Positions 14,268 through 63,995 of a stretch of DNA of 64,000 bases are shown here, one piece after another. The notes beneath the pieces were generated by a model. It was given only the letters and a program-made list of their open reading frames with translations, did no database searches and was not told the DNA's origin. Origin of the DNA: an uncultured Verrucomicrobiae bacterium (GTDB taxonomy: Bacteria; Verrucomicrobiota; Verrucomicrobiia; Chthoniobacterales; Terrimicrobiaceae); the NCBI GenBank assembly GCA_963851035.1, contig CAWKNY010000003.1:25293-89292 (forward strand). The letters are read 5' to 3'. The translations under genes were made by a program, and so were the position numbers. Numbering within the stretch: the first letter of the stretch is position 1; each line of letters opens with the position of its first letter.

Positions 14268-14282
14268 CGGGGGAAAAAGTTC

Positions 14283-36760: not shown

Positions 36761-39700
36761 ATGGATAGCGATCTCAAATCTGGTCTCAGGCATCAGCGGA
36801 TCATCGCCAACGCGGGTTCGGGAAAGACACATCGGCTGACAACACGCTACATCGAACTGCTCGAACGCGACGTTCCCGCCGAGCAGATTGTCGCCTTGAC
36901 TTTCACCCGTAAGGCAGCGGGTGAGTTTCTGGACGCGATCTTTGATCGTCTCTTGAAGGCGTTGGCCTCAGAGTCGGAAGCGCTCAACCTTGCCCGGGAG
37001 ACGGGCATGCCGAAGCTGACGTCGGAGCGGTGCCGGAGTCACTTGCGCCAGCTGGTCGAGAAGCTTTCGCTCCTGACGCTGGGCACGCTCGACAGCTTCT
37101 TTGGCAAAATCCTCCGGGCATTTCCGTTCGAATGCGGACTGGCAAGCGAAGTGACCATCCTTGATGATCACTTGCAAGGGGTCCTTCGGCGCCAGGTGCT
37201 TGCGGACGTCTTCCGCGACCAACTGCGCGATGAAAAGGGCTTCGCGGAGTTTCTCGATCTCATCCGCCAGCAAAGTCGCAACCGCGAGAGCCGTGACGTC
37301 TCACGAACGCTTGACCGCGCGGTCGAAGAGTTGCACGAACGTTTCCTTCTTACCCCCGCCGACAAACCATGGGGGAATCCCTCGGCCATCTGGCCGTTGG
37401 GTTCTCCGCTCCTCGCGCACAGCGATATCCTGGGCCTGGCGGAGAAATTTGAGAAAGACCTCTTCCGCAGTCAAGCGAATATGGACGCCGGGCACCGCGA
37501 AAGCTGGGAGGCGCGACTGCGCGAGATTCGGGCATTAAAGAGCGGATCTCCTGCTTCGGACAAGCTGATCACCTTCGCGATTCGTGCCCTTGATCCGCCG
37601 GCGGACAGGACGCGACCGGGTCACTTCGTCCTCAGTCTCGGCAAGGTAATGTTTCATTTTCCAAATAGCATGCGCGACTCTGTCGTGCCGCTCGGCCGGG
37701 CAATTCTTGGCATCGAACTCGAAGGCCGGCTCGCCCGCTCGGGCGCGCTCTACAGGCTTCTGGCGCGCTTCGAAGCCCGCTACCAGGTGCTCGTCCGCGA
37801 TAACGGACAGCTCACTTTCCTTGATGTTGCGGGATTGCTCGCCGCGGCAGGGGGGACATCATGGGGTGCCAAGTCGGTCGGGTCGTTCAGCCGGCAGGAA
37901 ATGAATTTCCGTCTCGACTCCTCCTACGACCACTGGTTGCTCGATGAATTTCAGGATACCAGCCGATTGCAGTGGCAGGCGTTGCGCGACCTGGTGGACG
38001 AGGTCATCCAAAGCGATAGCGGACGGCGTTCGTTTTTCTATGTCGGGGATACGAAACAGGCCATCTACACCTGGCGTGGCGGCGATCCGCGGCTTTTCGA
38101 TGAGGTCTCCGACTTTTATAATGCATCCGGCACAGAGCGGATCGATACCCGGGAGGCCCTTGATGTTTCATTTCGCTCGGCGCCGGAAATTCTGGATGCC
38201 GTCAACACGATTTTCTCCCCGGAACACCTGCAACGGCTCGCTGGGATGCTCGAGTTTCCGGTGGAAGTTCTCGATCGCTGGCGATCCGCCTGGCGGCATC
38301 ATGAGGCGCAGCAAAGATTCCGCGGGACGGGATTGTTCGAGTGGCGTTCGTTGGATGTCCCCGCCGACGAAGCAAGGGCTGCTTTGGACGATGAAGCTGC
38401 GCGTCGCATTAAGGAGGTCGATCCTCTCGAAAAGGGATGGTCATGCGCAGTGCTGGTGCGCACCAATCCCCGCATCCTCACCGTGATCGACGCCCTTCGC
38501 CGAGCCGGACTGCCCGCGACCGCGGAAGGGCGGATCTTTCCTTGCCAGGACAGCGACCTCGCCGCGGCAATCCTCGCATTCTTGCGCTTTATCGCCCATC
38601 CCAGCGACACCTTCTCGTGTCAGCATCTCATGATGACTCCGCTGGCCAAGCTTGTCAGCGGCGACCTGGAAGAGGTGCGCCGCTCTGCGCTGAGAAAAAT
38701 ACGGGAAGCCGGCTTTCACGGAATCGTGGCCAGCTTGCTCGAGAAGCTGGAGCTTGAACACAAGCCTTTCGCGAGAACGAGAGCCGAAGACCTCCTGATG
38801 GCCGCATCCGAATTTGATGCTGCCTGGCGCGGTCGGGCAGGGCTGGATGAATTTGTTGCCTTCGCACGGGGCTATGAATTGTCGGAGTATCCGGCGGGAA
38901 AGACGATTCGGGTGCTTACGATGCACGCGGCGAAGGGACTCGATTTTGACATGGTCGTTCTCCCGGACATCGACGCACGATCTTTATCGTCTCAGCGCGA
39001 CGCGTCCGTGCACCTCCACCACGGGCCGGACGGACAAGTGCAGTGGGGACTCGAGCTTCCGCCCGAGAAAGTCTGCAACCTTGATCCTGTCCTCAGCCAA
39101 GCTTGGGAACAGGAGGCAGCCGAGGAATGTTATGAAAGTCTCTGCCTTTCCTACGTTGCAATGACTCGCGCAAAGCGCGCACTCTATATCCTCAGCCGGA
39201 AACTCAGCCCGAAGAGCGATCGCAAGGACTTCAATCGTCTCCTCCACGAGACATTCGGCCGCGGCGGGTCCGCCTCGGGAGACCCTAACTGGCATCGGGA
39301 AATCAAAAGGCGCCCATTCTCCGCCGTGGAAGCGAACGTTTCATTGGTTGCCGGCGATCGTCGGCCCGGTTCTGCTCCGCTGCGACCATCACAAGCCGGT
39401 CCTTCGTGGATCAATGCGGCCTCGCTTTTCAGCGAAACCAGCGCCCGGGCCCTGGGATCGGAAGTGCATCGAACGCTCGCCAGGATCTCGTGGATCGACG
39501 AAGGCTTGCCAGACCCGGCAAGCCTGCCGCCCGAGGCCGCTGCCTTGATCGCGACTTTTCTCCAGACGAATACCGCCGCTCGTCTTTTCGCCCGGCCCTC
39601 CGGACCTTGCTCTCTCTGGCGCGAGAAGGCGTTCGACGTGGCTCTGGAGGGGCAATGGATCAGCGGCGTTTTCGACAGGGTGGTCATACACAGGAACGAA

Positions 39701-39919
39701 TCCGGCCAACCGCTTCGAGCCGCTATCTACGACTTCAAAACCGATGAAGGCGATCTCGCTGAAACCTACGGCACGCAGATGGGCCTCTATCGGAAGAGCC
39801 TGGGCTTCTTGATCGGTCTCCCGGAGCACAGAATTGCGTCCACGTTGATTGCCATCCGCACAGGAGAGGAGATCCCCGTGCGGTTTTCAGGAGACCTCGT
39901 GCAAATGGATCTTCTTTGA
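36761..39919 (+). CDS. AddA-like UvrD-family helicase with C-terminal PD-(D/E)XK nuclease
   Basis: Walker A NAGSGKTH, motif II LLDEFQDTS, motif VI YVAMTRAKRALYIL, C-terminal nuclease motif GVFDRVV..IYDFKTD. Confidence 0.85.
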   Translation: MDSDLKSGLRHQRIIANAGSGKTHRLTTRYIELLERDVPAEQIVALTFTRKAAGEFLDAIFDRLLKALASESEALNLARETGMPKLTSERCRSHLRQLVEKLSLLTLGTLDSFFGKILRAFPFECGLASEVTILDDHLQGVLRRQVLADVFRDQLRDEKGFAEFLDLIRQQSRNRESRDVSRTLDRAVEELHERFLLTPADKPWGNPSAIWPLGSPLLAHSDILGLAEKFEKDLFRSQANMDAGHRESWEARLREIRALKSGSPASDKLITFAIRALDPPADRTRPGHFVLSLGKVMFHFPNSMRDSVVPLGRAILGIELEGRLARSGALYRLLARFEARYQVLVRDNGQLTFLDVAGLLAAAGGTSWGAKSVGSFSRQEMNFRLDSSYDHWLLDEFQDTSRLQWQALRDLVDEVIQSDSGRRSFFYVGDTKQAIYTWRGGDPRLFDEVSDFYNASGTERIDTREALDVSFRSAPEILDAVNTIFSPEHLQRLAGMLEFPVEVLDRWRSAWRHHEAQQRFRGTGLFEWRSLDVPADEARAALDDEAARRIKEVDPLEKGWSCAVLVRTNPRILTVIDALRRAGLPATAEGRIFPCQDSDLAAAILAFLRFIAHPSDTFSCQHLMMTPLAKLVSGDLEEVRRSALRKIREAGFHGIVASLLEKLELEHKPFARTRAEDLLMAASEFDAAWRGRAGLDEFVAFARGYELSEYPAGKTIRVLTMHAAKGLDFDMVVLPDIDARSLSSQRDASVHLHHGPDGQVQWGLELPPEKVCNLDPVLSQAWEQEAAEECYESLCLSYVAMTRAKRALYILSRKLSPKSDRKDFNRLLHETFGRGGSASGDPNWHREIKRRPFSAVEANVSLVAGDRRPGSAPLRPSQAGPSWINAASLFSETSARALGSEVHRTLARISWIDEGLPDPASLPPEAAALIATFLQTNTAARLFARPSGPCSLWREKAFDVALEGQWISGVFDRVVIHRNESGQPLRAAIYDFKTDEGDLAETYGTQMGLYRKSLGFLIGLPEHRIASTLIAIRTGEEIPVRFSGDLVQMDLL

Positions 39920-47730: not shown

Positions 47731-50388
47731 TTACGCATTCTGTGGTGAGGTTTCGATGAGGTCCCACGGCGAAGCGATGCGACCAGCGTCCCAGGCCGCC
47801 TGCAATTCTGCTTCCGGCAGCAGTTGTTTCAGCGCGGCCACGGACGCTTCGAGTTGGGTCTTCTCCTTAGCGAGCAATTGCGTGCCAAGGTTTTCGCGCA
47901 TGGCTTCGGTGGCGCCGAACAGGCGCGCGGCTTGTTTGGGTTGATTGATTCCGAGAGCGAGGTTGGCGTGGCCCTCAAGGATGTAGGGCAGAATCCAACG
48001 GTTCCCGAGTTCGCGGGTAATTCGAGTCCACTCAGCGAGCGCGCTTCGAGCGCGCGAATAGTCTTTCTGAGCGATAGCGACTTCTGTGATGCCCCAGAGG
48101 ATGAGGCCGATAATCCATTGGTCGCCAAGGCGTTCGTAGATGGTCAGGCTTTGCTCCTTGAGATCGCGCGCGCGGACTAGGTCGCCGCGGTCCATGGCGA
48201 TGCTGCCCAGACCACTTAGTCCCCCGGCCTCGACATAGGTTTCGCCGATCTTCCGTCCAACCTCCAATGCGCGCTGGAAGCGGCGCTCGGCCTCGTCAAG
48301 ATGGCTGTCGCCCCGGTCAAGAAAACCGATCAGCATGTCGGCGAGGGCGGAGCCGGCTTCGTCGCCAAGCGCGTCATATACTTGCTGTGCTTCCGCACAG
48401 TATTTCCGGGCATCGTCGTAGCGATCGTCGGCCCACGCGATCCGGCTGACCGCGATACGACCCGCGGCCTTGTAACGGGGTGTGACCTCTGCATCCGGCA
48501 ATGCCAGGAGACGCATTGCGATATCCCACGCCTCAGCCAGATTACCCCGGACTTCGATGACGCGGTACAAGGCGGCGATCAGGCGCAGACCGGCTTCGGT
48601 TTTTTGAGATTTGATGGTCCATTCCGCAGCAAAGCGAAAATTGAAGAGATCGCTCTCCCAGCGGTCGAGCCATGACCTCTGGTCGGGGCCTTGGAGGTGA
48701 GGCGCGGCTTCCTCCGCGAAGGCGAGGAAGTAGTCCAAATGTCGGTTGCGCACGGCGGGAGCTTCACCGGAGGCGTCGAGTTTTTCCCGCGAGTAGTGCC
48801 AGACCGTTTCGATCATCGTATAGCGGGGATTTCCCGAGTCATCGAGCTCCACGGTGATGAGGGACTTATCGACGAGCTGTTCGAGCAAATCGAGCATCTC
48901 GAAGTCCTCGAGGCCGTCTCCAGAACAAACCTTCTCGAGAGCTTCGAGAGTGCGCCCGCCGGCGAAGACTCCCATCCGGCGAAAGGCGATGCGTTCCTTT
49001 TCCGAGAGAAGGTCGTGGCTCCAGTCGATGAGGGTTTGGAGCGTTTGCTGATGCGGAAGGCCGTCCCGGGCTCCACCACGCAGGAGACGGAAACGATCGT
49101 CCAGTCGTGAAGCGATCTGCTCGACGCTGAGCAGCTTGACGCGCGCAGCGGCGAGTTCGATGGCGAGCGGAATGCCATCGAGACGGCTACAGATTTCTGC
49201 GATCGCGGGAGCACTCGCTTTGGTGATGGTGAAATCCGAGCGCACCGCAACAGCGCGCGCGACGAAGAGCTTTACCGCCTCGTATTGTGAGAGTCGTTTG
49301 GCGAAGTCCTCGCCGCGAAAATCGTCGGGGCCAAAATCGAGGACTTGAAGCGGAGGGACGCGGAAAATGGCTTCGCCTCCGATACCCATCACATGCCGGC
49401 TGGTGGCGAGGATCTTGAGTCGCGGACAAGAGCGCAGAAGTTCTCCAGCAAGAGCTGAAGCGGCCGACAGCAAATGCTCACAATTATCCAGCAACACCAG
49501 AATGCTCTTGGCGCGGAGAAAGTTTACGAGGGTCGAGTGCAATGGGCGATCCGGCTCCTGGCGGACGCCCACGGCGGCGGCAACGGCTTCCACCACGCGG
49601 TCGGCCTCGGCAATGAGCGCCAGCTCGACCAGCCAGACACCGTCGCGAAAATCATGGATGACCTGAGCGCCGGCTTCCAGCGCAAGTCGGGTCTTGCCCG
49701 TGCCGCCTGTCCCCATCAATGTCAAGAGCCGGGCGTCCGCGAGAAGAGTTTTCACTTCCTCCAACTGCTTTTCGCGTCCGACGAAGCTGGTGCTTTGCAC
49801 AGGGAGATTGTTGGGCAGGGCCTCCATGCTTCTCGGCGGGGGGAAAGATTCAGCGAGACCCTGAACCACCACCTGATACAAGTGCTCCGGTCTGTCCAGA
49901 TTGCGCAGGCGATGATTCCCCAAAGACTTGAACGAGATGGCACCAAGCGGCTCATCCTCGAGAAGTTCGACGGCGATTCGCGATAACAAAATCTGGCCGC
50001 CATGGCCAGCTCCCTCGACCCGCGAGACGCGATTCAGGGTGCCTCCAAAATAGTCGCCGTCCCGAAACTCCGCCGGACCCGCGTGGATGCCCATGCGCAC
50101 GGTAAGAGCTCCGATTTCCTTCCAATCCTCGGCGGCGAGCGCGCGCTGCGCGTCGATCGCCGCTTCGAGCGAGTCGCGCGGTGATTGGAACGCCGCGCAG
50201 ACCGAGTCGCCCACCGTCTTGAAAACAAAGCCGGCGTGAGCCTCCACGGCCGATCGGATGAGGTCATCGTGGCGGGCCAGCGCCGCGCCCATGTCGGCGG
50301 GGAATTTTTCCCACAGCCGTGTGCTCCCCACGATATCGGTGAAGAGAAAGCTGACAGTTCCCATGGGCGGCTCGCGCATATGCGGCAA
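47731..50388 (-). CDS. Class III adenylate/guanylate cyclase - STAND-type P-loop ATPase - TPR protein
   Basis: Cyclase motifs FLFTDIVGSTRLW and FKTVGDSVCAAF. P-loop LMGTGGTGKTRLA. A long TPR-like C-terminus. Confidence 0.85.
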   Translation of the reverse strand: MPHMREPPMGTVSFLFTDIVGSTRLWEKFPADMGAALARHDDLIRSAVEAHAGFVFKTVGDSVCAAFQSPRDSLEAAIDAQRALAAEDWKEIGALTVRMGIHAGPAEFRDGDYFGGTLNRVSRVEGAGHGGQILLSRIAVELLEDEPLGAISFKSLGNHRLRNLDRPEHLYQVVVQGLAESFPPPRSMEALPNNLPVQSTSFVGREKQLEEVKTLLADARLLTLMGTGGTGKTRLALEAGAQVIHDFRDGVWLVELALIAEADRVVEAVAAAVGVRQEPDRPLHSTLVNFLRAKSILVLLDNCEHLLSAASALAGELLRSCPRLKILATSRHVMGIGGEAIFRVPPLQVLDFGPDDFRGEDFAKRLSQYEAVKLFVARAVAVRSDFTITKASAPAIAEICSRLDGIPLAIELAAARVKLLSVEQIASRLDDRFRLLRGGARDGLPHQQTLQTLIDWSHDLLSEKERIAFRRMGVFAGGRTLEALEKVCSGDGLEDFEMLDLLEQLVDKSLITVELDDSGNPRYTMIETVWHYSREKLDASGEAPAVRNRHLDYFLAFAEEAAPHLQGPDQRSWLDRWESDLFNFRFAAEWTIKSQKTEAGLRLIAALYRVIEVRGNLAEAWDIAMRLLALPDAEVTPRYKAAGRIAVSRIAWADDRYDDARKYCAEAQQVYDALGDEAGSALADMLIGFLDRGDSHLDEAERRFQRALEVGRKIGETYVEAGGLSGLGSIAMDRGDLVRARDLKEQSLTIYERLGDQWIIGLILWGITEVAIAQKDYSRARSALAEWTRITRELGNRWILPYILEGHANLALGINQPKQAARLFGATEAMRENLGTQLLAKEKTQLEASVAALKQLLPEAELQAAWDAGRIASPWDLIETSPQNA

Positions 50389-52775: not shown

Positions 52776-54197
52776 ATGACTCAAGAGACCTCGCAGCCGG
52801 CGGCAGCGGTCGAAGGATTGGATGATTACTTCTGGGACGATCTGCTCGCCTACATCGAAGAGAAGCGGGTCATTCCGATCATCGGCCCCGACTTGATTTC
52901 GGTGGAAGTTGAAGGACGAGAGACGCTGCTTTACCGCTGGCTTGCCCAGCGGCTTGCGCCGCGGCTGAGCGTTCCAGTTCAAGCCCTGCCCGCGGAGTTC
53001 TCACTCAACGAGGTCCTCTGCGAATTCCTAAGCCGTCGCGGGCGGCGCGAGGATGTTTACCCGCGCCTGCGAATGATCATGCGCGAAGCGAGCTTTTCGC
53101 CGCCGGAGGCGCTGCGGCAACTGGCAGCGATCACCGATTTCAATCTTTACGTCGCCACGACTTTCGACTCGTTGTTGGAACAGGCGATCAACGAGGTGCG
53201 GTTCAATGGCAAAATGCGCACTGAAGTGCTCTCCTACGCGCCGAACAAACTGGTGGATCTGCGCTGCGAGAAGGACCGTCTGGAGTATCCAACCGTCTAT
53301 CACCTGCTCGGCAAATTGGCCGCCGCGCCCTCTTACGCAATCTGTGACGAAGATATTCTCGAGTTTATTTGCACGCTACAGTCGGAAAACTTCTGCCCGG
53401 AAACTCTCTTTAGTGAGCTAGAGAACAACAATCTGCTCATCCTCGGTTGCGGGTTCTCGGACTGGCTGGAGCGGTTTTTCCTTCGGATGGCAAAACGGCA
53501 CCGGCTCTCCGATCCCCGCGATGTTCTCGAAGTCGTTGCCGATAGCCACACACCGCGGGACCCGAACCTCGTCGTGTTTCTCCAGCAGGTTAGTAGCCGC
53601 ACCAAAGTCTTTCGCGGCGGCGACGCAAGCGCCTTCATCGGGGAGCTTTGGCGCCGCTGGCAGGCGCGGCAGCCTGCTATAACAGCCGGTGAAATCTCGA
53701 GGCCTCAAGCGTTGCGGTTCTTGCCGCCAGAGCGAGAGATGCCTGAGGGCGCCGTCTTTATCAGCTACGCACGCGAGGACCTCGGGGCTGTGCGGGAACT
53801 TAAAACCGGCCTGGAGCGCGGTCTGACCGGCCTGGACGCCGCCGGTCTGACCGTATGGTTCGACATGGAACGGCTCGGGAGCGGTGACGATTTCGACCGC
53901 AAAATACAGCGTAACATCGCGCGCTGCAGTTTCTTCCTGCCCGTGATCTCGGCAAACACCCAGCGCCGGGAGGAAGGCTACTTCCGCCGCGAATGGCATT
54001 ACGCTGCCGATCGAGACAAGAACATCGCCGAGGGCGCATACTTCATCATTCCCGTGGCCATCGATGAGACTCCCAGTGAAGATGCCAGAGTGCCGGAGTG
54101 CTTCCGTCCGAAGCTTTGGACGCGGCTGCCGGACGGACGCGTCAACCCGGATTTCGCGCAGCGCATGCGTCAGTTAACCGGAAAAGAAGGGTCGTAA
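52776..54197 (+). CDS. SIR2-like (SIR2_2-type) domain fused to a TIR domain
   Basis: SIR2_2-like landmarks: VIPIIGPDLIS, VATTFDSLLEQA, TVYHLLGKL, LLILGCGFSDW (about aa 17-295). TIR landmarks: AVFISYAREDLGAVRELKTGLE, LTVWFDMERLGSGDDFDRKI, SFFLPVISANTQRREEGYFRREW (about aa 325-465). The stop overlaps the next start (TAATG at 54195-54199). Confidence 0.75.
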   Translation: MTQETSQPAAAVEGLDDYFWDDLLAYIEEKRVIPIIGPDLISVEVEGRETLLYRWLAQRLAPRLSVPVQALPAEFSLNEVLCEFLSRRGRREDVYPRLRMIMREASFSPPEALRQLAAITDFNLYVATTFDSLLEQAINEVRFNGKMRTEVLSYAPNKLVDLRCEKDRLEYPTVYHLLGKLAAAPSYAICDEDILEFICTLQSENFCPETLFSELENNNLLILGCGFSDWLERFFLRMAKRHRLSDPRDVLEVVADSHTPRDPNLVVFLQQVSSRTKVFRGGDASAFIGELWRRWQARQPAITAGEISRPQALRFLPPEREMPEGAVFISYAREDLGAVRELKTGLERGLTGLDAAGLTVWFDMERLGSGDDFDRKIQRNIARCSFFLPVISANTQRREEGYFRREWHYAADRDKNIAEGAYFIIPVAIDETPSEDARVPECFRPKLWTRLPDGRVNPDFAQRMRQLTGKEGS

Positions 54198-57100
54198 TGA
54201 AAGGAATCGAACCAAAGCAAGGTATCAGCTCCGAAAATCCGTGGCTTGGCCTGGACGCTTTCACCGAAGATGCTTGCGATTATTTTTTCGGTCGCGACGA
54301 CGAAGTCAGCGAACTGCTGCGCCGAGTGAAGCGAAAGACGCTGACGGTGCTCTTCGGCCAGTCGGGTCTGGGGAAGACCTCGCTCCTGCAGGCTGGGCTT
54401 TTCCCGCGACTGCGGCGCGACAATTTCCTGCCAATTTATGTTCGCTTGGACTTCGCCTCGGAAGCGCCCGGGCTCGTAACGCAGCTCAAGGAACACATCA
54501 CTGACGCGCTCGGGCGCGGCGACTTCGCGGAGGCGCCGGTGCCGGCTGACGGCGAGACGCTCTGGGAATATTTCCACCGGCGCGGCGCCTTGCTGCACAC
54601 CCGAGAGGGCCAGGTTGTGACGCCGGTGCTCGCCTTTGACCAGTTCGAGGAAATTTTCACTATCGGACAGGGAGCTGGTCCTGTCAGCCGGCAATTCTTG
54701 ACCGAGCTGAGCGACCTTATCGAGAACCGCGCACCGGCGGAGTTGGAGAGACGCATGGAGGAAGAACCGGAGCTGGCCGAGCAGTTCGATTTCAGCCACG
54801 TCGCCTATCGGATCCTGCTCAGCCTGCGTGAAGATTACCTGCCTCACCTTGAAACCAAGAACCTGCGGGAGAGGATGCCCTCGCTCATGCAGAATCGGAT
54901 GCGGCTCACGCGCATGAACGGTCGCCAGGCCCTGGAGGCCGTCCTCAAGCCGAGCGGCGAACTCATCTCCCCGGAAATCGCGAAGGAGATCGTCTGCTTT
55001 GTCGCAGGCGCGCAGCCCGACGGGGCCGACGCAGGCATTGAGCAGCTCGAAGTCGAGCCGTCGCTGCTGAGTCTCGTCTGCCGCGAGCTGAATAACAAAC
55101 GGCTCGCGCTTGGCCAAAGCCGGATCACAGCCGATCTGCTGGCGGGCAGCAGCAACGCGATTTTGCAGGATTTCTATGATCGTTGCGTGGCGGATCAGTC
55201 CCGGCCGGTGCGCTGCTTTGTCGAGGACGAATTGCTCACCGACTCGGGCTTTCGGGAAAACGTGGCGCTCGAACGCGCTCGCAAGCTCCTCGAGCAAAGA
55301 GGGGCGCGCGCGAGTGCGATCGATGAACTCGTTGACCGGCGCCTGCTGCGCGTTGAGGAGCGGCTCAACGTCCCCCGCGTCGAGTTGACCCACGACATCC
55401 TCACCGGAGTGGTCCGTACCAGTCGCGATTCGCGCCGCGCCCGCGAAGAAAAAGCCGAGGCCGAACAGCGGCAACACGACGCCGAGGAACAGCGGCGACT
55501 TGCCGAAGAGCGTGAACAGCAAGCGAAAAAGCAGTTGCGCCGAGCGCGGCAGCAGATCACCGCAATCGCGATGCTGATGGTCCTGGCAGTGATCACCGCG
55601 GTGTGGGCCCTGAGCGAACGTTCGCGCGCGGATAACGAACGAAGCCGTGCGGAAAAGCTTCTTGGTGACGTGAAGCTCGCCAAAGGGGCTATTTACCGTG
55701 GGCAAGTCCGCGAGTGTCACACTGCCTGGAAGAGTCGTGACATCGGCCGAGCGCAATCGCTGCTGGACACCCCCGATGTGCGCCCGTGGTCTCCGGCGGA
55801 GGCAGATCTGCGGGGCTGGGAATGGTATTTCCTCAAAGGACTCTGCGACACCGGCAGCCGCAGATTCATCGGCCACAGCGACTACGTGAACGCCGCCGCC
55901 TTCAGTCCAGATGGGCGCTGGATTGCTTCAGCAAGCGGCGATTCTACAGCAAAATTATGGGATGCCGAGACCGGGGAAGTGGTCCGGACCTTTGGCCTCA
56001 AAGGAGAATTCGTTGGCATTGGCACCTGGCTTGATCAGGACTGGCAGTTCAACGTGGTGGTCACGGAAGTGTATCCCGACAGCCCTGCGGATCGCCAGGG
56101 CGGATTGAAGCGCGGAGACCGAATTCTCAGGATTTCGGACGCGTCAGGAAGATTGATCGATGTGTCCCAAAAAGGGCTCAAAGAGGCTTCAGATCTTCTG
56201 CGGGGGAAGGCTGGTAGCGAGGTTGAAATCGAAATCCTGTCGCAGGGCCAGTCAGACAAGAGGACCGTTCGACTGACACGCGCCGAAATGAAATACAAGA
56301 GCGGCCACAGCGGTCCGGCGAGTTGCCTCGCTTTCAGCATCGATGGCAAGCAGCTCGCTACGGGAGGCGATGACGGGACGATCAGGCTCTGGGATGTCGA
56401 GACGGGAAACGAGCTGCAAGCAATCCAGGCGCACCAAAACGGGGTCAGGAGCCTCGCCATCAGCCCCGACGGACGTCTGCTGTGCTCGGCGGGCTACTCC
56501 GACCCGGTGATCAGAGTTTGGGATGCCAATAGCGGCCGAAAAATAGTCGAGTTGCCCGGCCAAGCAAAGCCGGTGAACCATGTAAGCTTTGGCAGGGGTG
56601 GCCGGCTCGTGTCGGGCGGAAATGACGGTGCTGTCGTTATATGGGACGTCGCCAGCGGCCGCGAAATTTCCAGACTGGATGCTGGCGGGCCTGTCTATTC
56701 GGCAGCTCTGAGCTCCGAAGGCCGCTGGTTGGCGGCTGGATTGTATGGCGCAATAGCACTGTGGGATCTGACAGCAACCGTCACGCAGCCGCGCAAACTG
56801 TGGGGGCATCCCAGCTGGATCGATGCGCTGGCTTTCAGTCTCAGCGGAAAGCGCCTGGCCTCTGCGGGCTCCGAGGGGACTGTGAAAATCTGGGATGTCG
56901 GCGAGGGCAAAGAAGTGGGCACCCTAAAGGGTCACACCGCGAGCGTAAAGGGCATTGCATTCAGCCCCCATGGTTGGTCTTTGGTCTCATCGTCAATGGA
57001 TGGGAGCGTACGGCTGTGGGATCTACGCGCGACGACCGTAAACGATCGCAGAACTCTGCAAGACGTCCCGGCGCGGGTGGTTCGGTTCAGCCGGGACGGA

Positions 57101-58714
57101 CGGCTCCTCGCGGCCGCAAATTCCATTACCGGGGCGATTACTATCGTGGATAGCGCGACCGCCACATCGCTTCGAAGAATCGAAGGCTCCAGTCAATGGC
57201 TGGATTTTGCTCCTTCGGGTTATCAGTTTGCATCGGCTGAAAGCGACGGCAGCGTCAAGCTGATCGATGCCCACACCGGGCAAGTGCTCCGCTCGCAGAA
57301 GGTCCACGAAGGAGCCGTTAACGTCGTCATCTTCAGCCCTGATGGAAGGCTGCTGGCGTCAGCGGGTAACGACCATACAGTGCAAATCTGGGATTTTGGG
57401 GCCGGACAACCGCGCACACTCGCTGGCCATACCGCGCCAGTGTGGAGGCTGGCGTTTTCGCCGGACGGCCAACTCCTGGCATCGTACGCTCACGACGGGA
57501 GTGTCCGGATTTGGAACACCGGGAGCGGAAAGCAGATTCAATCGGTGCCGTCCAACGGATCTTTTTGCCTGAAATTCAGCCCCAACGGAGTCCTCCTCGC
57601 CATAGCGCAGGTCGACGGGCGCGTGCAGCTTTGGGATGTAAACAAAAAGACCATCGTTCAGACGCTCTTCGGGCATCGCAGCTATGTCTGGGATGCCGCA
57701 TTTTCGTCGGATGGCCGGCGGCTGGTGACCGTAGGAGACGAAGGATCGGTGCGAGTGTGGGAACTCGACACCGCCCGCGAACTCTTTGCCCTCGACGAGG
57801 ATACTGACATGTCCGGGTCGGTGGCTTTCAGCCCGGATGGCTGGCGACTGGTCACAGCGGGAGATGGTGGACTCAGGCTCTGGGATGCGGCGATTCTGGC
57901 CGTAACGTCCGAGCCGAACGATTGGGTTTTCTTCTACAGTCGCGCCCTCGTGAGGTTGAACCAGCGTCAGTGGGCGCAGTCGGCCTCCGACCTTTCCAAA
58001 GCGATCGCGCTTGGCGGCAGCGAACCTCAGCTTTGGCTGTGGCGTGCTGAAGCGGAAGCCCAGCTCGAGCAGTGGGAGCGCGCGGCGGATGATGTAGCGG
58101 AGGCTCTGAAGCGAGGCTATGACGGTCTCGCGGGTAACTACTACCGTGCGCTGCTCGCTCTTAAGCTTGCGCGTCCTGGCGAATACGAAAACGCGTGCGC
58201 GTCGGTTCTGGAAGTAGCGGCAGGTCACCAGGACCGACCCGAGCCTCTCAACTCGGGCGCGTGGACATGCGCCATCGGTCCCCTCTCCCGGAAGCACCTA
58301 GGACAGGCTCTCTCACTGATAAGGCGCGCCGTCGAGCTAAGTCCTGCAACGTACGAATATCGCAACACGCTCGGGGCGACGCTCTATCGTGCCGGCGAGT
58401 ATGAGGATGCGATAAAAGAGCTTGAGGAATCGATGCGTATCCTGACGGCAACCGCAAGTGGCACAGCCGCCAAACCTGACACGAAGGAGGAATCCGCCAC
58501 GATCATGGCGTATGACTGGCTGTTCCTGGCCATGGCCCATCAGCGGCTTGGCCGCATCGAGGAGGCGCGCACATGGCTGCGAAAAGCGACCCGCTCGATG
58601 GAGCAAACGGAGTACGAGCGTTCGCTGGAAGCCGCCTTTTGGTGGAGCAATCGGCTCGAACTGCAGCTCCTTCGTCAGGAGGCCGAATCGCTCATCACAG
58701 CTGGCGCAAGGTGA
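54197..58714 (+). CDS. nSTAND-like P-loop NTPase - coiled coil - TM helix - WD40 (with inserted PDZ) - TPR protein, 1505 aa
   Basis: Start at MKGIEPKQ; the 33 upstream codons of the track ORF overlap the previous gene. NPWLGLDAFTEDACDYFFGRDDE leads to Walker A GQSGLGKTS (54356-54382) and Walker B-like VLAFDQFEEIF. A charged coiled coil occupies aa ~412-453. The hydrophobic helix ITAIAMLMVLAVITAVWAL is at 55556-55612. More than 14 WD40-like units are present (..SPDGR..ASAS.D.T.KLWD..). The PDZ-like insert is at 56003-56287 (VVVTEVYPDSPADRQGGLKRGDRILRI). TPR-like repeats run to the end. Confidence 0.8.
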   Translation: MKGIEPKQGISSENPWLGLDAFTEDACDYFFGRDDEVSELLRRVKRKTLTVLFGQSGLGKTSLLQAGLFPRLRRDNFLPIYVRLDFASEAPGLVTQLKEHITDALGRGDFAEAPVPADGETLWEYFHRRGALLHTREGQVVTPVLAFDQFEEIFTIGQGAGPVSRQFLTELSDLIENRAPAELERRMEEEPELAEQFDFSHVAYRILLSLREDYLPHLETKNLRERMPSLMQNRMRLTRMNGRQALEAVLKPSGELISPEIAKEIVCFVAGAQPDGADAGIEQLEVEPSLLSLVCRELNNKRLALGQSRITADLLAGSSNAILQDFYDRCVADQSRPVRCFVEDELLTDSGFRENVALERARKLLEQRGARASAIDELVDRRLLRVEERLNVPRVELTHDILTGVVRTSRDSRRAREEKAEAEQRQHDAEEQRRLAEEREQQAKKQLRRARQQITAIAMLMVLAVITAVWALSERSRADNERSRAEKLLGDVKLAKGAIYRGQVRECHTAWKSRDIGRAQSLLDTPDVRPWSPAEADLRGWEWYFLKGLCDTGSRRFIGHSDYVNAAAFSPDGRWIASASGDSTAKLWDAETGEVVRTFGLKGEFVGIGTWLDQDWQFNVVVTEVYPDSPADRQGGLKRGDRILRISDASGRLIDVSQKGLKEASDLLRGKAGSEVEIEILSQGQSDKRTVRLTRAEMKYKSGHSGPASCLAFSIDGKQLATGGDDGTIRLWDVETGNELQAIQAHQNGVRSLAISPDGRLLCSAGYSDPVIRVWDANSGRKIVELPGQAKPVNHVSFGRGGRLVSGGNDGAVVIWDVASGREISRLDAGGPVYSAALSSEGRWLAAGLYGAIALWDLTATVTQPRKLWGHPSWIDALAFSLSGKRLASAGSEGTVKIWDVGEGKEVGTLKGHTASVKGIAFSPHGWSLVSSSMDGSVRLWDLRATTVNDRRTLQDVPARVVRFSRDGRLLAAANSITGAITIVDSATATSLRRIEGSSQWLDFAPSGYQFASAESDGSVKLIDAHTGQVLRSQKVHEGAVNVVIFSPDGRLLASAGNDHTVQIWDFGAGQPRTLAGHTAPVWRLAFSPDGQLLASYAHDGSVRIWNTGSGKQIQSVPSNGSFCLKFSPNGVLLAIAQVDGRVQLWDVNKKTIVQTLFGHRSYVWDAAFSSDGRRLVTVGDEGSVRVWELDTARELFALDEDTDMSGSVAFSPDGWRLVTAGDGGLRLWDAAILAVTSEPNDWVFFYSRALVRLNQRQWAQSASDLSKAIALGGSEPQLWLWRAEAEAQLEQWERAADDVAEALKRGYDGLAGNYYRALLALKLARPGEYENACASVLEVAAGHQDRPEPLNSGAWTCAIGPLSRKHLGQALSLIRRAVELSPATYEYRNTLGATLYRAGEYEDAIKELEESMRILTATASGTAAKPDTKEESATIMAYDWLFLAMAHQRLGRIEEARTWLRKATRSMEQTEYERSLEAAFWWSNRLELQLLRQEAESLITAGAR

Positions 58715-58911: not shown

Positions 58912-60915
58912 TTACGGCTTCGCCAACTGCGCGCGCAGCCGCGCGAATTGGGCCGTCACATCCTCGCCCTTCATGGGCCGATTCATGAGTTCCTCGTAGG
59001 TCTCTTCATCGACTTGTTCTCCACGGATTTCCCGCAAGAACGGACTGGGGCGGCAATGCGCGGGAGTGCCGAACTTCCTGCGCGATCGACACCATGTGAC
59101 TACCAGCGAACGCATCGCGCGCGTGATGCCCACGTAGAAGAGCCTGCGTTCTTCATCGATGGCGCCTTCGGCCTTCGAGCGTTCGTGCGGCAGCAGCCCG
59201 TCCTCCGCGCCGATCAGGAATACATTGGGGAACTCAAGACCCTTGGCGGCATGCAGTGTAATCAACGTGACGCCGCCCGCCGTTTCCTGGGTGTCCTCCT
59301 CGCGCTCGCGATCCAGGCTCACCTCGTCAAGGAAGCCTTGAAGACCGTGGTCCGTCCGCTTCTGGTAGTCGCCCAAGGCGCGAAGCATTTCCCTGATGTT
59401 CTCCTCACGATTCAGCGATTCCTCCGGAGTCTTGCAGGAGCGCTTGAGGTCGTCCAGGTAGCGGCATTCCGCTAGAAGAGTGGAGAGGACCTGCGCGCAA
59501 TCCGCCCCCGGTGTTTGGACGCGGATGCGCGCGGCTTCGATTTCGTCCACAAACGCTCGAATGGCTTCGGCTGACTTACGTGTGCAGGTATCCAGGTAAT
59601 CACGATGGCCCAGCGCGTGGAAGAGGCTGAGCTGGTTTTCTACGCTGAAGGCCAGAGCCAACTCAACATTGGTGGCGCCAATCCCGCGGGGCGGAGTATT
59701 GATGATACGAAGGAGGGAGGCATCATCGGACGGGTTCAAGAGGAGAGCCATGTACGCGGTGAGATCCTTGATCTCACGTCGTTCAAAGAAGCTCTTTCCG
59801 CCGACAAGACGGTACGGAATCCGGCTCCTGCGAAAGTTTTCCTCGAGCAGCCTGGACTGTGCGTTCATTCGGTAGATGACGGCGACTTGCTCGTATGGTG
59901 TGCTTCGCTCCGCACAAAGCGCGGCGACTTCCTGGGTGACAAACTCGGCTTCCGTCCGGTCGTCCGGCATTGAGATGATCCGAACCGGATCTCCATCCTT
60001 GCCTGGACTCCATAGCCTCTTCGGGCGACGGCGCGGATTGTGCGAGATGAGACGGTTGGCCGCGCCGAGAATGGCATTGGTGCTCCGGTAGTTTTGTTCC
60101 AGCCGAATGATTCGCGGATTCGGGAAATGGTTCTCAAACTCGAGGATGTTCGCGACCTCGGCACCGCGCCATCCGTAGATGCTTTGATCGTCATCGCCGA
60201 CGACGCAGACGTTCGGCGGCTTTCCGTTGGCCAGTAGGGTGACGAGTTCGAGCTGCAGGCGGTTTGTATCCTGGAACTCATCCACTAGGAGGTGGCGTGC
60301 CTTGCCGCGCCATTTTTCCCGGACTTCAGGCGACTCGGAAAGGAGCCGCACTGCCTGGACGAGCAAGTCGTCGAAATCCATCGCGTTCAGGGCGCGAAGT
60401 TCCTGTTCGTAACGGCGAAACACGGAACCGATGAGGGTCTCATCGTCACGTGCCGTCCAGGCGTTATTCTTCGCCTTGCTGATAACGTTCTTGGCAAGGT
60501 GCGGATCGAGTTTCTCGTCGCGGGAGCAAATACGAGTGGTGATTTTCTTGATGAGACCCAGCTGGTCGCTCTCGTCGAAGATGCTGAAATTGGCCTTATA
60601 GCCCAGGCGCTGCGCATCGCCGCGAAGGACCCGCAGGCAAAGCGCATGGAACGTCGAGGCGGTGACGAGTCTGGCCTTGCCGGGATCGACCATGCCGGCA
60701 ATGCGCTCCTTCATTTCGCGAGCCGCCTTATTGGTGAACGTCACGGCGAGGATCTTCGCAGGGTCTTGCCCCTGGGCGATCAGCCAGGCAATGCGGGCTG
60801 TGAGGGTGCGCGTCTTCCCGGTGCCTGCGCCCGCAAGAATCAGCAAAGGACCTTGGTCGTGCTCAACGGCTCGGAGCTGCTCTGTATTCAGGTCAAGAAT
60901 TCTAGATCGGCTCAT
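58912..60915 (-). CDS. uvrD: UvrD/PcrA/Rep-type ATP-dependent DNA helicase
   Basis: LILAGAGTGKTRTL, LLVDEFQDTNRLQ, TLHAAKGLEFPNVFL, LFYVGITRAMRSL. 4-nt overlap with purN. Confidence 0.9.
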   Translation of the reverse strand: MSRSRILDLNTEQLRAVEHDQGPLLILAGAGTGKTRTLTARIAWLIAQGQDPAKILAVTFTNKAAREMKERIAGMVDPGKARLVTASTFHALCLRVLRGDAQRLGYKANFSIFDESDQLGLIKKITTRICSRDEKLDPHLAKNVISKAKNNAWTARDDETLIGSVFRRYEQELRALNAMDFDDLLVQAVRLLSESPEVREKWRGKARHLLVDEFQDTNRLQLELVTLLANGKPPNVCVVGDDDQSIYGWRGAEVANILEFENHFPNPRIIRLEQNYRSTNAILGAANRLISHNPRRRPKRLWSPGKDGDPVRIISMPDDRTEAEFVTQEVAALCAERSTPYEQVAVIYRMNAQSRLLEENFRRSRIPYRLVGGKSFFERREIKDLTAYMALLLNPSDDASLLRIINTPPRGIGATNVELALAFSVENQLSLFHALGHRDYLDTCTRKSAEAIRAFVDEIEAARIRVQTPGADCAQVLSTLLAECRYLDDLKRSCKTPEESLNREENIREMLRALGDYQKRTDHGLQGFLDEVSLDREREEDTQETAGGVTLITLHAAKGLEFPNVFLIGAEDGLLPHERSKAEGAIDEERRLFYVGITRAMRSLVVTWCRSRRKFGTPAHCRPSPFLREIRGEQVDEETYEELMNRPMKGEDVTAQFARLRAQLAKP

Positions 60916-61499: not shown

Positions 61500-61565
61500 C
61501 GCGGGCCCGGATGATGCCCTTCAGAGGGCAGCATCGCAAGCGATGCTTCCAAACGATACATTTCC

Positions 61566-62507
61566 GTGCAAGATGCGCCGGTAGCGGTGAAGAAAACGCA
61601 ACCGACGCCCCGACGCGAGTCGGGCAAACCATTGGAAATCTATCTGCGCGAGGCGGCGAAAGACGTGGACGCGGCCTTGAACAGCCTGCTGCCAAAGGCT
61701 TCGGTCAAACCATCCACGATTCATCGCGCCATGCGCTATAGCTTGTTCGCCGGCGGGAAGCGCATGCGACCGGTGCTTTGTATCGCCTCGGCCGAGACTT
61801 GCGGAGGGAGCAGAGAACGCGCGTTGCCCGCTGCCTGCGCCGTCGAATGCGTGCACACCTACTCGCTCATTCACGACGATCTGCCCTGCATGGACGACGA
61901 CGACTTGCGCCGCGGACGGCCAACCTCGCACAAGGTTTTTGGGGAAGCCGTCGCCGTTCTGGCGGGCGACGCCTTGCTGACCGTCGCCTTTGAAATTCTC
62001 GCGTCGATTCACGAGCCGCGGCGCTATACGCTCAGGGATTTCCTGGCCGAACTGGCCTTCGCCGCAGGCAGCAGGCGGTTGATCGCCGGACAGGTCGCCG
62101 ACCTCGAGGGAGAGGGGAAAGAATCCTCCCGCAGCGAGCTGCGCTATATTCATGAGTGCAAGACGGCGGCCATGATTGTCGCCAGCCTCAAGCTTGGCGC
62201 AATGGCCGCCAACGCGACGCCCGCACAGCTCGGTGCGCTTGCTAGTTTTGGATACTACCTGGGCCTGGCCTTCCAAGTCATCGACGACATCCTCGACATC
62301 ACTCAGACAAGCGAAAGGCTCGGCAAGAGCGCAGGCAAGGACGTTGCCGCGCAAAAGACCACCTATCCCGCCCTCATCGGGCTCGAGGCCTCTCGCAGGG
62401 AGGCCCGCCGGCTCACGGCACGCGCCCATGCGGCCCTCGAGCCATTCGGCACCCGCGCCGCGCGACTTCGCGAAATCGCCGATCACCTCCTCGCAAGAGA
62501 ATACTGA
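61566..62507 (+). CDS. Polyprenyl (farnesyl/geranylgeranyl) diphosphate synthase
   Basis: First and second Asp-rich motifs LIHDDLPCMDDDDLRRGRPT and FQVIDDILD. The exact start is uncertain. Confidence 0.85.
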   Translation: MQDAPVAVKKTQPTPRRESGKPLEIYLREAAKDVDAALNSLLPKASVKPSTIHRAMRYSLFAGGKRMRPVLCIASAETCGGSRERALPAACAVECVHTYSLIHDDLPCMDDDDLRRGRPTSHKVFGEAVAVLAGDALLTVAFEILASIHEPRRYTLRDFLAELAFAAGSRRLIAGQVADLEGEGKESSRSELRYIHECKTAAMIVASLKLGAMAANATPAQLGALASFGYYLGLAFQVIDDILDITQTSERLGKSAGKDVAAQKTTYPALIGLEASRREARRLTARAHAALEPFGTRAARLREIADHLLAREY

Positions 62508-62513
62508 AACTAG

Positions 62514-63995
62514 CTAGTTCGGTGCAGGTCCGGGCGGCTGGGAAGGCTCGGGGACGGGAGCCTCCGGGAGGTCAGGATTGGGCATGCGCACCAGGAGCCA
62601 CTCTTGCGTCTGATTGGCGCCGAAGTGAACGAAGCAGGCCGTTTGGTCCTTGGTCAATCCGTAAAGATTGCACTCGACGACGGAGTTTCGTTTTTCACCG
62701 GTGTGCCATGCGACGCGCTGGGAATTCTTTTCGACCGAACCCGTGACCGGAGCCGATTCGCCTGTCAGCACGTTACAGTATCCGCCGGTGATCAGACCCT
62801 CCCGCGTCATGGAGAGCTGGTAGAACATGATGGCATCGCCTTTCTCCTGCTGGACGAGGGCCCACACCCCGAGGGGAATAATGCTGGCATCGTTCGCATC
62901 GATCGGCGCGGGGGGTGGAGGGACATCTGCGGGATTGGCCAGCGCCAGCGCTTGCTGGCGGTAATCTGCCGCCGATTCCGTTCTCTCACCTTCAACATAG
63001 ACGTCGCTACCCTCCATGACGATATCCGTGCCGTAATCGTAGGCAATCGGTTCCGGCGGGACGGACCCATAGATGACCGAGTAGCCCGGCCAGACGACCG
63101 GCTGCCACCACCACCATGGGTTCAGATAGATGTTGATGTTGCCTCCATACCACCAGCCGCAGCCATGCCACCAATCCGGCGTGAACCAATGATCATGAGC
63201 GTCGCGAATGCTGTTGCGGATCTCATTGGCACGGTCCGCCCGATAGTCCCAAACGTCTTGGCGCCAATCGCGCCAGGCATCGCCGCGCTGCTGCCAAGCC
63301 TCGCGGCCTTTCTCGCGGAAGTCATGAATTTCATGCCATCGTTGCTCCCGATGCTGTGAAAAGCTATGGAGCTCGGGGCCGTAGTGTTGGGACCATTTAT
63401 TCCAGTAGTTCTCGCGTTGCTGGCTCCAAGCGTTGGGGCCGCCCGGACGAGCGCTGAAGTGATGGCTGAAGTAGTTGCCGGCCTTGATGGCGCCGTTGTT
63501 GATGAAGGTATCGCCGATGTCAGGTCGTCCGGGCCGTCCGTCCGGTCGATTGGGGTGCCAGGTCCCCGGAGGCTTGGCAGGACGAACGGCTGCGCCCTGC
63601 GGGCGTGTTCCCGGTCCGGAACTCCGCCGGTCTGCGGGCAACGTGACAAAAGCTTGATCTCGGGAACGGTTGACGTTGCCGGCGTTAGCGCCAGGGCGGG
63701 TGCCGCCTGACTTGTCGAGCGCGGGCCGACTCACCGGCACGTGGTCGATTCGCGAAAGACCGTCGTTGCCGGAAGGCCGTGAAAAGCTTCCGGCGCCAGA
63801 CGGCCGCGGCAGGCCGGTCGATTTGCCGGAAATCGACGAACCGCCGCTGTTCGAAGGCCTCGAAACCCTGGATGTGCTGGTTGAAGTTCTTGAGGCAGAA
63901 TGCCCGGCAGCGCCGTGATAACCGCCAGCGGCCCGATGCCCCCCACCCATACCGGCCTGCGACCGCGGAGGCGCAAGCGTCGAGAGCACGATCAT
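62514..63995 (-). CDS. Hypothetical Gly/Pro/Ser-rich and Trp-rich protein (start may lie outside the window)
   Basis: 493-aa ORF. It has a low-complexity N-half and a Trp-dense core (TPDWWHGCGWWYGGNINIYLNPWWWWQPVVWPGY). The frame is still open at the window edge. Confidence 0.5.
   Translation of the reverse strand: MIVLSTLAPPRSQAGMGGGHRAAGGYHGAAGHSASRTSTSTSRVSRPSNSGGSSISGKSTGLPRPSGAGSFSRPSGNDGLSRIDHVPVSRPALDKSGGTRPGANAGNVNRSRDQAFVTLPADRRSSGPGTRPQGAAVRPAKPPGTWHPNRPDGRPGRPDIGDTFINNGAIKAGNYFSHHFSARPGGPNAWSQQRENYWNKWSQHYGPELHSFSQHREQRWHEIHDFREKGREAWQQRGDAWRDWRQDVWDYRADRANEIRNSIRDAHDHWFTPDWWHGCGWWYGGNINIYLNPWWWWQPVVWPGYSVIYGSVPPEPIAYDYGTDIVMEGSDVYVEGERTESAADYRQQALALANPADVPPPPAPIDANDASIIPLGVWALVQQEKGDAIMFYQLSMTREGLITGGYCNVLTGESAPVTGSVEKNSQRVAWHTGEKRNSVVECNLYGLTKDQTACFVHFGANQTQEWLLVRMPNPDLPEAPVPEPSQPPGPAPN

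Follow-up and report, generated by a model that had tools for sequence, protein, structure and literature searches.

To our knowledge, the characterised STAND/NOD-like receptor (NLR)-like immune receptors of bacteria, Avs and bNACHT, are all soluble and carry out recognition inside the cell. In Avs5 (AVAST type 5), as in other Avs/TIR-STAND proteins, a STAND switch is combined with a variable C-terminal sensor and with a SIR2- or TIR-type effector that targets NAD. Here we analyse a two-gene locus in a 64,000-nucleotide (nt) stretch of DNA from an uncultured Verrucomicrobiae bacterium (assembly GCA_963851035.1, contig CAWKNY010000003.1, positions 25,293 to 89,292; hereafter the window), comprising a gene for a SIR2-like/TIR protein (gene 1), followed by a gene for a STAND NTPase with a transmembrane (TM) helix and a C-terminal sensor (gene 2). 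The sequences of the pair and its relatives lead us to lean, slightly, towards reading it as a translationally coupled conflict or immunity module that joins a membrane-spanning STAND protein to a cytoplasmic TIR output. The pair represents an apparently undescribed, widespread family of the broad "effector plus STAND" class, within the nSTAND1 clade.

The SIR2 domain of Avs5 matches the SIR2-like fold of gene 1 (Foldseek). In Avs5, however, effector and STAND module form one chain, whereas the pair encodes them as two translationally coupled proteins, and the SIR2-like domain of gene 1 is without the catalytic Asn and His. The NTPase of the pair also differs from Avs in belonging to the nSTAND1 clade, with no PADLOC Avs model matching gene 2; in being parted from its sensor by a TM helix; and in forming, with the effector, a core whose conservation greatly exceeds the Avs norm. 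Thoeris type I (ThsB plus ThsA, SIR2-SLOG) likewise has a TIR and a SIR2_2-family domain within one system, and ThsA, with SIR2 followed by a Rossmann-like C-terminal domain, is the nearest whole-protein fold to gene 1. The C-terminus of ThsA, however, is a SLOG sensor, whereas that of gene 1 is a TIR with a catalytic Glu, and on sequence the SIR2 and TIR roles look inverted in gene 1. Further, the pair is without a separate ThsB and has a STAND NTPase as an obligatory component; we found no SLOG or Macro domain in it and no match to a ThsA model, and the ThsB model matched only the TIR, at an E-value (E) of 1.3e-3.

The nSTAND1 conflict systems of Kaur, Burroughs, Iyer and Aravind belong to the same PF20703 clade and share the plan of a constant NTPase, an effector and a variable C-terminal sensor. 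In particular, Kaur et al. name nSTAND1 in effector-associated domain (EAD)-/effector-STAND-FGS conflict systems (eLife 2021, PMC8195603) and predict a counter-invader or apoptosis-like role (PMC8195603; eLife 2020, PMC7159879). Those systems are built around FGS/C-type-lectin sensors, pairs of EAD adaptors and diversity-generating retroelement (DGR) diversification (PMC8195603, PMC7159879), and in neither paper is nSTAND1 given a SIR2-TIR partner or split from its sensor by a TM helix; the word SIR2 is absent from PMC7159879 and occurs once, in another context, in PMC8195603. In our pair, Pfam returned no EAD or Death-like match in gene 1 or gene 2, in agreement with the first-pass annotation of this DNA (made from the sequence alone), which had seen no effector-associated adaptor domain; the nSTAND1 match begins at residue 15 of gene 2.

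Single-chain proteins of Actinobacteria provide a further comparison. P0458 (Egibacteraceae metagenome-assembled genome, MAG) and P0467 (Geodermatophilus sp. URMC 61) have an NTPase of the same clade, a TM helix before a WD40 sensor and a TIR effector, but their TIR is fused to the NTPase N-terminus and the SIR2-like domain is missing; in P0423, a helix-turn-helix takes the place of the TIR at the N-terminus. These proteins show that nSTAND1 repeatedly goes with a TIR effector and that spanning the membrane is a general trait of the clade; P0458 and P0467 are uncharacterised, so they support a TIR-nSTAND1 link, not a function. Toll-like receptors offer an analogy: their repeat sensor likewise lies outside the cytoplasm, one TM helix crosses the membrane, and the output inside is TIR-based. 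Their TIR, however, belongs to the receptor chain itself and has a scaffolding function, whereas in the pair a STAND ATPase is interposed, the enzymatic-looking TIR is on the partner protein, and the topology is a predicted one.

System assignment with PADLOC-DB v2 and NCBIfam (June 2026) returned no system, with nothing above cut-off in NCBIfam. The PADLOC matches of gene 1 are driven only by the TIR (SPARTA-type, SAVED-TIR, PDC-S66 and, weakly, ThsB), and those of gene 2 only by the WD40 repeats (HEAT-ARM_XIII). In the literature, we found no publication describing the pair or a SIR2-TIR fusion, and the pair is not described in the 2025 systematic TIR survey or in the 2026 STAND survey. The latter, which nowhere mentions membranes, would tend to miss this clade because it scored clades by fused effectors or defence neighbourhood. 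The earlier impression that the locus is not a named defence system thus agrees with PADLOC, NCBIfam and the literature.

A conserved and coupled gene pair

The TAA of gene 1 (54195-54197) and the ATG of gene 2 (54197-54199) have one base in common, giving the TAATG overlap already reported in the first-pass annotation, and a Shine-Dalgarno-like GAAGGG lies 6 nt before the ATG. The longest open reading frame (ORF) of gene 2 begins at GTG 54098; the conserved start is ATG 54197, which yields a protein of 1505 amino acids (aa). Read from the sequence, gene 1 and gene 2 are an operon with translational coupling. The E-values and ORF lengths of both genes are well past chance level. A promoter and terminator scan gave counts no different from the shuffled level, and no tRNA or Rfam feature was found in the window.

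At E<1e-5, the homologues of gene 1 number more than 4058 (90%-identity clusters). The best 120 of these are all about 460 aa long, all contain SIR2_2 and TIR_2, are about 60% identical, and come from Betaproteobacteria, Gammaproteobacteria and Verrucomicrobiota. The SIR2-like domain alone matches at least 616 clusters at E<=1e-30 and 2390 at E<=1e-3 among 1.84 billion 50%-identity representatives. A metagenome scan with an alignment as the query gave at least 503 confirmed relatives, from which 80 loci were taken; with 4 loci from long contigs and 1 from a genome-contig scan with a single-protein query, 85 loci were fetched. An nSTAND1 homologue, 50-64% identical to gene 2 over the first 450 aa, lies directly downstream on the same strand in 79 of the 85. 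The six exceptions comprise two loci in which gene 1 runs off the contig end and four with only 24-478 nt of downstream sequence; every locus with more than 478 nt downstream of gene 1 carries the nSTAND1 gene. The adjacency in other genomes that had been proposed as a check on the locus therefore holds at 79 of 79 scorable loci, and the pair, no isolated oddity, belongs to a very large, conserved and obligate two-gene family.

The coupling recurs with the pairing. In 60 of the 79 loci the stop codon of gene 1 overlaps the start codon of its partner, by 1, 4 or 8 nt; 49 have the 4-nt ATGA form. A divergent branch, only 31% identical, is carried by the 2.5-Mb replicon of Paraburkholderia caribensis MBA4; there too the two genes stand in the same order with an ATGA overlap, and the Walker motifs and TM helix are retained. 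Across 39 loci, pairwise identities of gene 1 track those of the NTPase (matrix correlation r=0.77), which fits joint inheritance of the two genes. The best gene 2 homologue is annotated as Chthoniobacterales.

Domain-architecture statistics drawn from databases of this kind would be misleading for this family, many STAND partner models being truncated, split or falsely fused to TIR. The faults are caused by frameshifts, and the tails are Arg/Ala/Gly-rich out-of-frame translations (P0313, P0367, P0381 and P0410; European Nucleotide Archive (ENA) long-read assemblies, ERZ25039xxx and others). Four candidates were rejected on these grounds: P0367 and P0381 as natural TIR-nSTAND1 fusions (out-of-frame junctions in frameshifted long-read assemblies); P0313 as a "short" partner of about 620 aa (out-of-frame tail, frameshifted long-read assembly); and P0410 as a free-standing WD40-PDZ-TPR protein (actually the C-terminal part of a frameshift-split partner gene).

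Catalytic residues of the SIR2-like and TIR domains

Gene 1 joins a SIR2_2-like domain and a TIR in one polypeptide, as first annotated, with both Pfam matches above the gathering score: SIR2_2 at aa 124-251 (E 3.6e-10, 40.5 bits) and TIR_2 at aa 327-458 (E 1.3e-16, 61.7 bits). An AlphaFold2 (AF2) model of gene 1 (predicted local distance difference test, pLDDT, 75.5; higher in the SIR2 part) matches ThsA along its whole length, and its SIR2 part matches the SIR2 domains of KomC, Avs5, DSR2, SPARSA and SIR2-HerA (Foldseek, probability 1.0 in each case). Pfam, Foldseek and profile comparison thus agree on the SIR2/Rossmann fold of the defence-associated SIR2_2 NADases. Searches of the PDB with gene 1 itself or with the close-family profile A1 returned TIR matches only and left the SIR2 relation unseen, and a global hhalign alignment of the family to Escherichia coli CobB was meaningless. 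ThsA was reached only by a profile confined to the SIR2 domain and built from 25 diverse family members, which matches SeThsA (7uxt) at E 2.9e-4 and BcThsA (6lhx/8bto) at E of about 5e-4.

The profile alignment (E 3e-4) places ThsA TTNYD against TTTFD of the family and ThsA YK(L/M)HG against YHLLG. Specifically, the catalytic residues N112 and H152 of ThsA correspond to T129 and L178 of gene 1, and H176 of gene 1 pairs with a ThsA Lys. A weak local hhalign match to E. coli CobB gives the same assignment for the Asn (VTQNID/VATTFD). Among 119 representatives, position 129 is T in 96, S in 9, N in 4, A in 4, G in 2 and C in 2 (T, S, A or G in 111), and position 178 is L, F or M in all 119 and His in none; H176 is kept in 89 and replaced in 30, by Q, R or Y in 26. 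The catalytic Asn and His of defence-associated SIR2 NADases are therefore not found in gene 1. In DSR2, mutation of N133 or H171 lowers NADase activity, and in EfAvs5 N141A abolishes defence (PMC10981675, PMC11897194, cited jointly for the two proteins). As far as residue identity tells, the SIR2-like domain is CATALYTICALLY degenerate, with both catalytic residues replaced family-wide, and the first-pass view of it as a second NAD-consuming fold does not survive. The domain most likely has a non-catalytic role, as a scaffold, an adaptor or a ligand-binding regulatory module.

The TIR presents the opposite picture. At E406, 116 of 117 aligned representatives have Glu; the position is one of only four invariant columns in a 110-sequence alignment and aligns to the catalytic Glu of SPARTA TIR-APAZ and PdTIR; the motif F-R-R-E-W is conserved in the family. 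Gene 1 thus combines a TIR fold with the catalytic Glu of enzymatic TIRs. The family profile matches the SPARTA TIR at E 2.5e-11, and the closest TIRs by profile (SPARTA, PdTIR, AbTIR, BtpA/TcpB, SARM1/tir-1, Cat1 and TIR-SAVED) are mostly NAD-cleaving effectors, with ThsB a weak match. Because E406 is nearly invariant and the SIR2 catalytic residues are gone, the TIR is the probable enzyme of gene 1.

The STAND protein and its sensor

The domain order of gene 2 given in the first-pass annotation, nSTAND, TM helix, WD40 repeats with an embedded PDZ, and TPRs, is borne out by Pfam, hydropathy and the translation. nSTAND1 (PF20703) matches aa 15-428 with E 8e-30 and 105 bits (cut-off 27.1) and spans 366 of the 379 profile positions. 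The motifs that had been picked out by eye are in place, with Walker A, GQSGLGKTS, at aa 54-62 and Walker B, DQFEE, at aa 148-152, and both are invariant in all 52 partners of testable length, the sample used for the Walker, TM and charge statistics. An AF2 model of aa 1-475 (pLDDT 90.1) has a STAND/Cdc6-like nucleotide-binding domain (NBD), a helical and winged-helix core, and one unbroken helix at aa 402-474 with the TM segment at its end. Its N-terminal module matches Cdc6/Orc1, the archaeal AAA+ ATPases 2qen and 2fna, NRC4 and NLRP2 in Foldseek; no solved structure with a sequence-level relation to this module was found. The profile match over the whole module, the Walker motifs and the AAA+-like NBD with helical/winged-helix modules agree with a STAND protein of the nSTAND1 type, and the NTPase looks competent from its motifs and model.

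A single strongly hydrophobic helix follows at aa 454-472. All 52 partners have one TM helix (mean 22.5 residues, at aa of about 435-475), with a net charge of +3.8 over the 15 residues before it and of +1.4 over the 15 after it; the charge of the N flank exceeds that of the C flank in 50 of 52 and falls below it in none. An ATPase module with invariant Walker motifs, paired with a protein predicted to use NAD+, must lie in the cytoplasm. From a cytoplasmic ATPase, a single TM helix and a positive-inside charge bias, gene 2 is therefore probably a type-II membrane protein (N-in/C-out) with an extracytoplasmic sensor. The first-pass annotation had seen the TM helix, which stands, but had not drawn the consequence that the sensor would lie outside the cytoplasm.

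By eye, the translation of the sensor region shows 14 WD40 blades, the first and second of them separated by a PDZ; the blades are predicted to form two 7-bladed propellers. PDZ_6 matches at about aa 621-680 (E 2.6e-10), PDZ and PDZ_2 also match, and NCBIfam prc-type matches give the domain a resemblance to the periplasmic Prc/DegP type. Several TPR families match aa 1237-1470, within the last ~270 aa. Generic WD40-array relatives are fused to Ser/Thr kinases, BlaR1/MecR1-type transducers, NACHT and nSTAND1.

The sensor evolves differently from the rest of the pair. In 40 loci of the common sensor type, the region after the TM helix has a mean pairwise identity of 30%, versus 74% for the NTPase, 76% for the TIR and 78% for the SIR2-like domain. 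Even in pairs whose NTPases are more than 85% identical, the sensors have a median identity of 52% and a minimum of 28%. The usual sensor, in 40 of 44 complete partners, is a region of about 610 aa with sub-threshold TPR signals only; a TPR-type sensor is present in 2 of 44 (one locus seen twice, L002/L003), and a WD40-array sensor in 2 of 44 (the window and L001, a Methylococcaceae MAG). The WD40-PDZ-TPR layout itself recurs once, in the split gene P0410 of locus L088, which is 61% identical and has the PDZ at the matching site. The window thus carries a rare substitute for the ~610-aa domain that is usual in the family, and the first-pass view of a STAND switch whose repeat sensor varies is reasonable. 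Fast divergence and whole-sensor swaps with a constant core are the pattern expected of a conflict receptor.

Possible mechanism, alternative readings and genomic setting

In the mechanism that we propose, a ligand would bind the gene 2 ectodomain, and the long helix and TM segment would carry the signal inward. The cytoplasmic STAND modules would then oligomerise in a nucleotide-dependent manner; SIR2-like/TIR partners bound to them would cluster, creating composite TIR active sites; and NAD+ would be cleaved, for depletion or for signal production, with growth arrest or cell death as the outcome. In this scheme the gene 1 and gene 2 proteins would interact physically, and the degenerate SIR2-like domain is an obvious candidate for the missing adaptor. 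More tentatively, it is possible that the family comprises transmembrane NLR-like receptors, whose hypervariable ectodomain would detect a cue in the periplasm or at the surface (for example, phage adsorption/injection machinery, envelope damage or a competitor toxin) and signal inward to a TIR NADase held by a pseudo-SIR2, much as Toll-like receptors relay outside signals to the cell interior in immunity. If so, it would be the first demonstrated case of a STAND immune sensor facing outward from the cytoplasm.

The first-pass annotation leads instead to a model in which SIR2 and TIR are both active, WD40, PDZ and TPR sense a cytoplasmic trigger such as a phage protein, and the TM helix is only an anchor. 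Pfam does assign SIR2_2 and TIR_2, the SIR2-like domain is strongly conserved, with an invariant G37 after beta-1 and H176 in most members, and the characterised Avs/bNACHT STANDs sense cytoplasmic phage proteins (PMC12803255). That proposal nevertheless seems improbable to us: the residues at the ThsA catalytic Asn and His positions are T129 and L178, H176 pairs with a Lys of ThsA and is replaced by Q, R or Y in 26 of 119, the ATPase and the C-terminal sensor cannot share the cytoplasm if a single TM helix lies between them, and the charge bias predicts N-in/C-out. A Thoeris-like scheme, in which the STAND-activated TIR, instead of depleting NAD+, makes a messenger (a cyclic ADP-ribose isomer or an ADP-ribose conjugate) that is read by another protein or by the SIR2-like domain, would suit the ThsA-like fold of gene 1, ThsA being a signal-activated effector, and many bacterial TIRs are signal generators (bioRxiv 10.64898/2025.12.03.692087). 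A candidate reader is the only recurrent neighbour, a TPR-S/MAP3K_TRAF_bd protein of about 630 aa, usually with a C-terminal nucleotide cyclase (Guanylate_cyc). Its gene lies beside the pair in 7-9 of the 33 loci with room for it, mostly directly downstream, and directly upstream, without the cyclase, in the Paraburkholderia branch; its product may be an accessory third component. It is, however, missing from most loci and from the window, and the closest relatives of the TIR deplete NAD, with ThsB only a weak match. We regard such a scheme as unlikely, if less so than the first-pass proposal. The window does contain a second STAND-type gene (47731-50388, minus strand) 2.4 kb upstream of the pair, which encodes an N-terminal adenylate/guanylate cyclase, an NB-ARC/AAA_22 NTPase (weak nSTAND1) and TPR_12/MalT-like TPRs; it was considered and rejected as a counterpart of the TPR-S/cyclase neighbour, with which it has only the generic cyclase domain in common (25-31% identity).

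A non-immune role, as a transmembrane device for envelope or environment sensing, for developmental or kin cell death, or for NAD-linked physiology, that only has parts in common with immune systems, would draw on several observations that weigh against an immune module. The pair of the window is flanked by genes for PNP, ROK, PurN and PcrA; most of 121 neighbour ORFs surveyed at 21 loci, a survey for which no background rate was computed, encode transporters or metabolic enzymes; and the PADLOC matches among neighbours are sparse (a DpdE/ZorD-like helicase, a reverse transcriptase and Cas1, one each, and generic ATPases). The association with defence islands, which the first-pass annotation had named as a check, is weak. 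No copy of the pair was found on viral contigs, and the sole match in the plasmid collection is the 2.5-Mb replicon. Effector and NTPase are unusually conserved, with about 60% identity across phyla, which could suit a housekeeping signalling role, the PDZ is of a periplasmic type, and WD40 ectodomain arrays of a similar kind are linked to Ser/Thr kinases and BlaR1/MecR1-type transducers. On the mechanistic side, the SIR2-like domain retains many invariant charged residues and could have some non-canonical activity; the topology is a prediction from hydropathy, charge bias and the ATPase-in-cytoplasm argument; and no interaction surface or adaptor domain was identified between the two proteins. 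Against a non-immune role stand the hypervariable, swapped sensor on a constant core, which fits a conflict receptor, and the coupling of a catalytic-Glu TIR to a STAND protein, which has an immune or cell-death output in all characterised cases. The flanks, moreover, differ at nearly every related locus, as expected for a cassette moving between genomes, and one locus, L088, has the pair amid Sf6-type terminase-like genes, a ParB_N gene and two phage-type integrases, a setting that looks like an integrative element or prophage remnant. A purely non-immune device seems doubtful to us, a shade more so than the messenger scheme, and we retain, with the modest preference stated above, the reading of the pair as a conflict or immunity module.

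The interest of the locus lies in the family, with its pseudo-SIR2, active-looking TIR, membrane-spanning STAND and fast-evolving sensor, over the rare WD40-PDZ-TPR sensor of the window. A conserved module abundant in soil and freshwater Proteobacteria and Verrucomicrobiota raises the prospect of outside-in, receptor-type innate sensing in bacteria. It also poses the questions of what a catalytically dead SIR2 does beside an active TIR, perhaps as a pseudo-enzyme adaptor in NAD-based immunity, and of how a STAND ATPase is coupled to its effector without an adaptor domain. The cultured carrier P. caribensis MBA4 makes the system testable, and, if not immune, the pair would still be a widespread, uncharacterised transmembrane signalling device that uses TIR chemistry.

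Table 1. Coordinates of the gene pair and its parts in the window, and of neighbouring genes at related loci (locus coordinates).
Feature	Position	Strand	Basis
Gene 1: SIR2-like + TIR protein, 473 aa	52776..54197	+	ORF, translation, Pfam
SIR2-like domain, aa ~15-300, predicted inactive	52818..53675	+	Foldseek, profile vs ThsA
T129 codon	53160-53162	+	ThsA Asn position
L178 codon	53307-53309	+	ThsA His position
TIR domain, aa ~323-460	53742..54155	+	Pfam TIR_2
E406 codon (catalytic Glu)	53991-53993	+	Alignment to SPARTA TIR-APAZ, PdTIR
TAATG stop/start overlap	54195..54199	+	Read in sequence
Gene 2: nSTAND1-TM-WD40/PDZ/TPR protein, 1505 aa	54197..58714	+	ORF, Pfam
nSTAND1 NTPase module, aa 15-428	54239..55480	+	Pfam PF20703
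Walker A	54356-54382	+	Motif reading
Walker B, DQFEE	54638-54652	+	Motif reading
Single TM helix, aa 454-472	55556..55612	+	Hydropathy 2.53
WD40 blade 1	55862..55984	+	Pfam WD40 (best at aa 556-589), translation
PDZ between WD40 blades 1 and 2, aa ~601-701	55997..56299	+	PDZ_6, PDZ, PDZ_2
WD40 blades 2-14	56300..57901	+	Pfam WD40/beta-propeller matches; count by eye
C-terminal TPR array, aa ~1237-1470	57905..58606	+	TPR_2, TPR_16, TPR_12 and related
TPR-S/MAP3K_TRAF_bd gene, L002	6080-8113		
TPR-S/MAP3K_TRAF_bd gene, L005	14665-16569		
TPR-S/MAP3K_TRAF_bd gene, L008	11676-13559		
TPR-S/MAP3K_TRAF_bd gene, L017	10131-12029		
TPR-S/MAP3K_TRAF_bd gene, L020	4954-6819		
TPR-S/MAP3K_TRAF_bd gene, L039	11498-13549		
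TPR-S/MAP3K_TRAF_bd gene, L051	11612-13507		
TPR-S/MAP3K_TRAF_bd gene, L052	1658-3643		
TPR-S/MAP3K_TRAF_bd gene, L066	7768-9783		
TPR-S/MAP3K_TRAF_bd gene, L087	4831-6270		
Terminase-like/ParB_N/integrase genes, L088	2617-3090, 11121-12122, 13519-14778, 15007-16245		

Within the window, the operon is solitary, with a divergent PNP_UDP_1 phosphorylase gene on one side, a convergent PcrA/UvrD helicase gene on the other, and ROK and PurN genes nearby. The helicase convergent to gene 2 is a canonical PcrA/UvrD (58912-60915, minus strand). Elsewhere the window is ordinary chromosome, with genes for SecA, for inositol catabolism and for an aldehyde dehydrogenase. Two ISL3-family transposase genes (Zn-ribbon, helix-turn-helix, DDE) lie about 1 kb apart at 32148-33377 and 34407-35618 (both plus strand), in an otherwise housekeeping region. 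Two plus-strand genes resemble the components of AddAB, one for an AddB-like PD-(D/E)XK nuclease protein (19236-22010) and one for a 1052-aa, AddA-like UvrD-type helicase with a large insertion (36761-39919). Four ORFs encode putative proteins of 321-609 aa with no Pfam match at the thresholds used (952-2781, plus strand; 13602-14978, 61521-62486 and 62514-63995, minus strand). At three related loci, a PGDYG-domain protein and an uncharacterised protein of about 350-370 aa are encoded directly downstream (L004 14656-16188; L061 5716-7288; L064 5203-6775), and in L004 a TIR+DUF8082 gene and a HAMP-containing gene adjoin these two.

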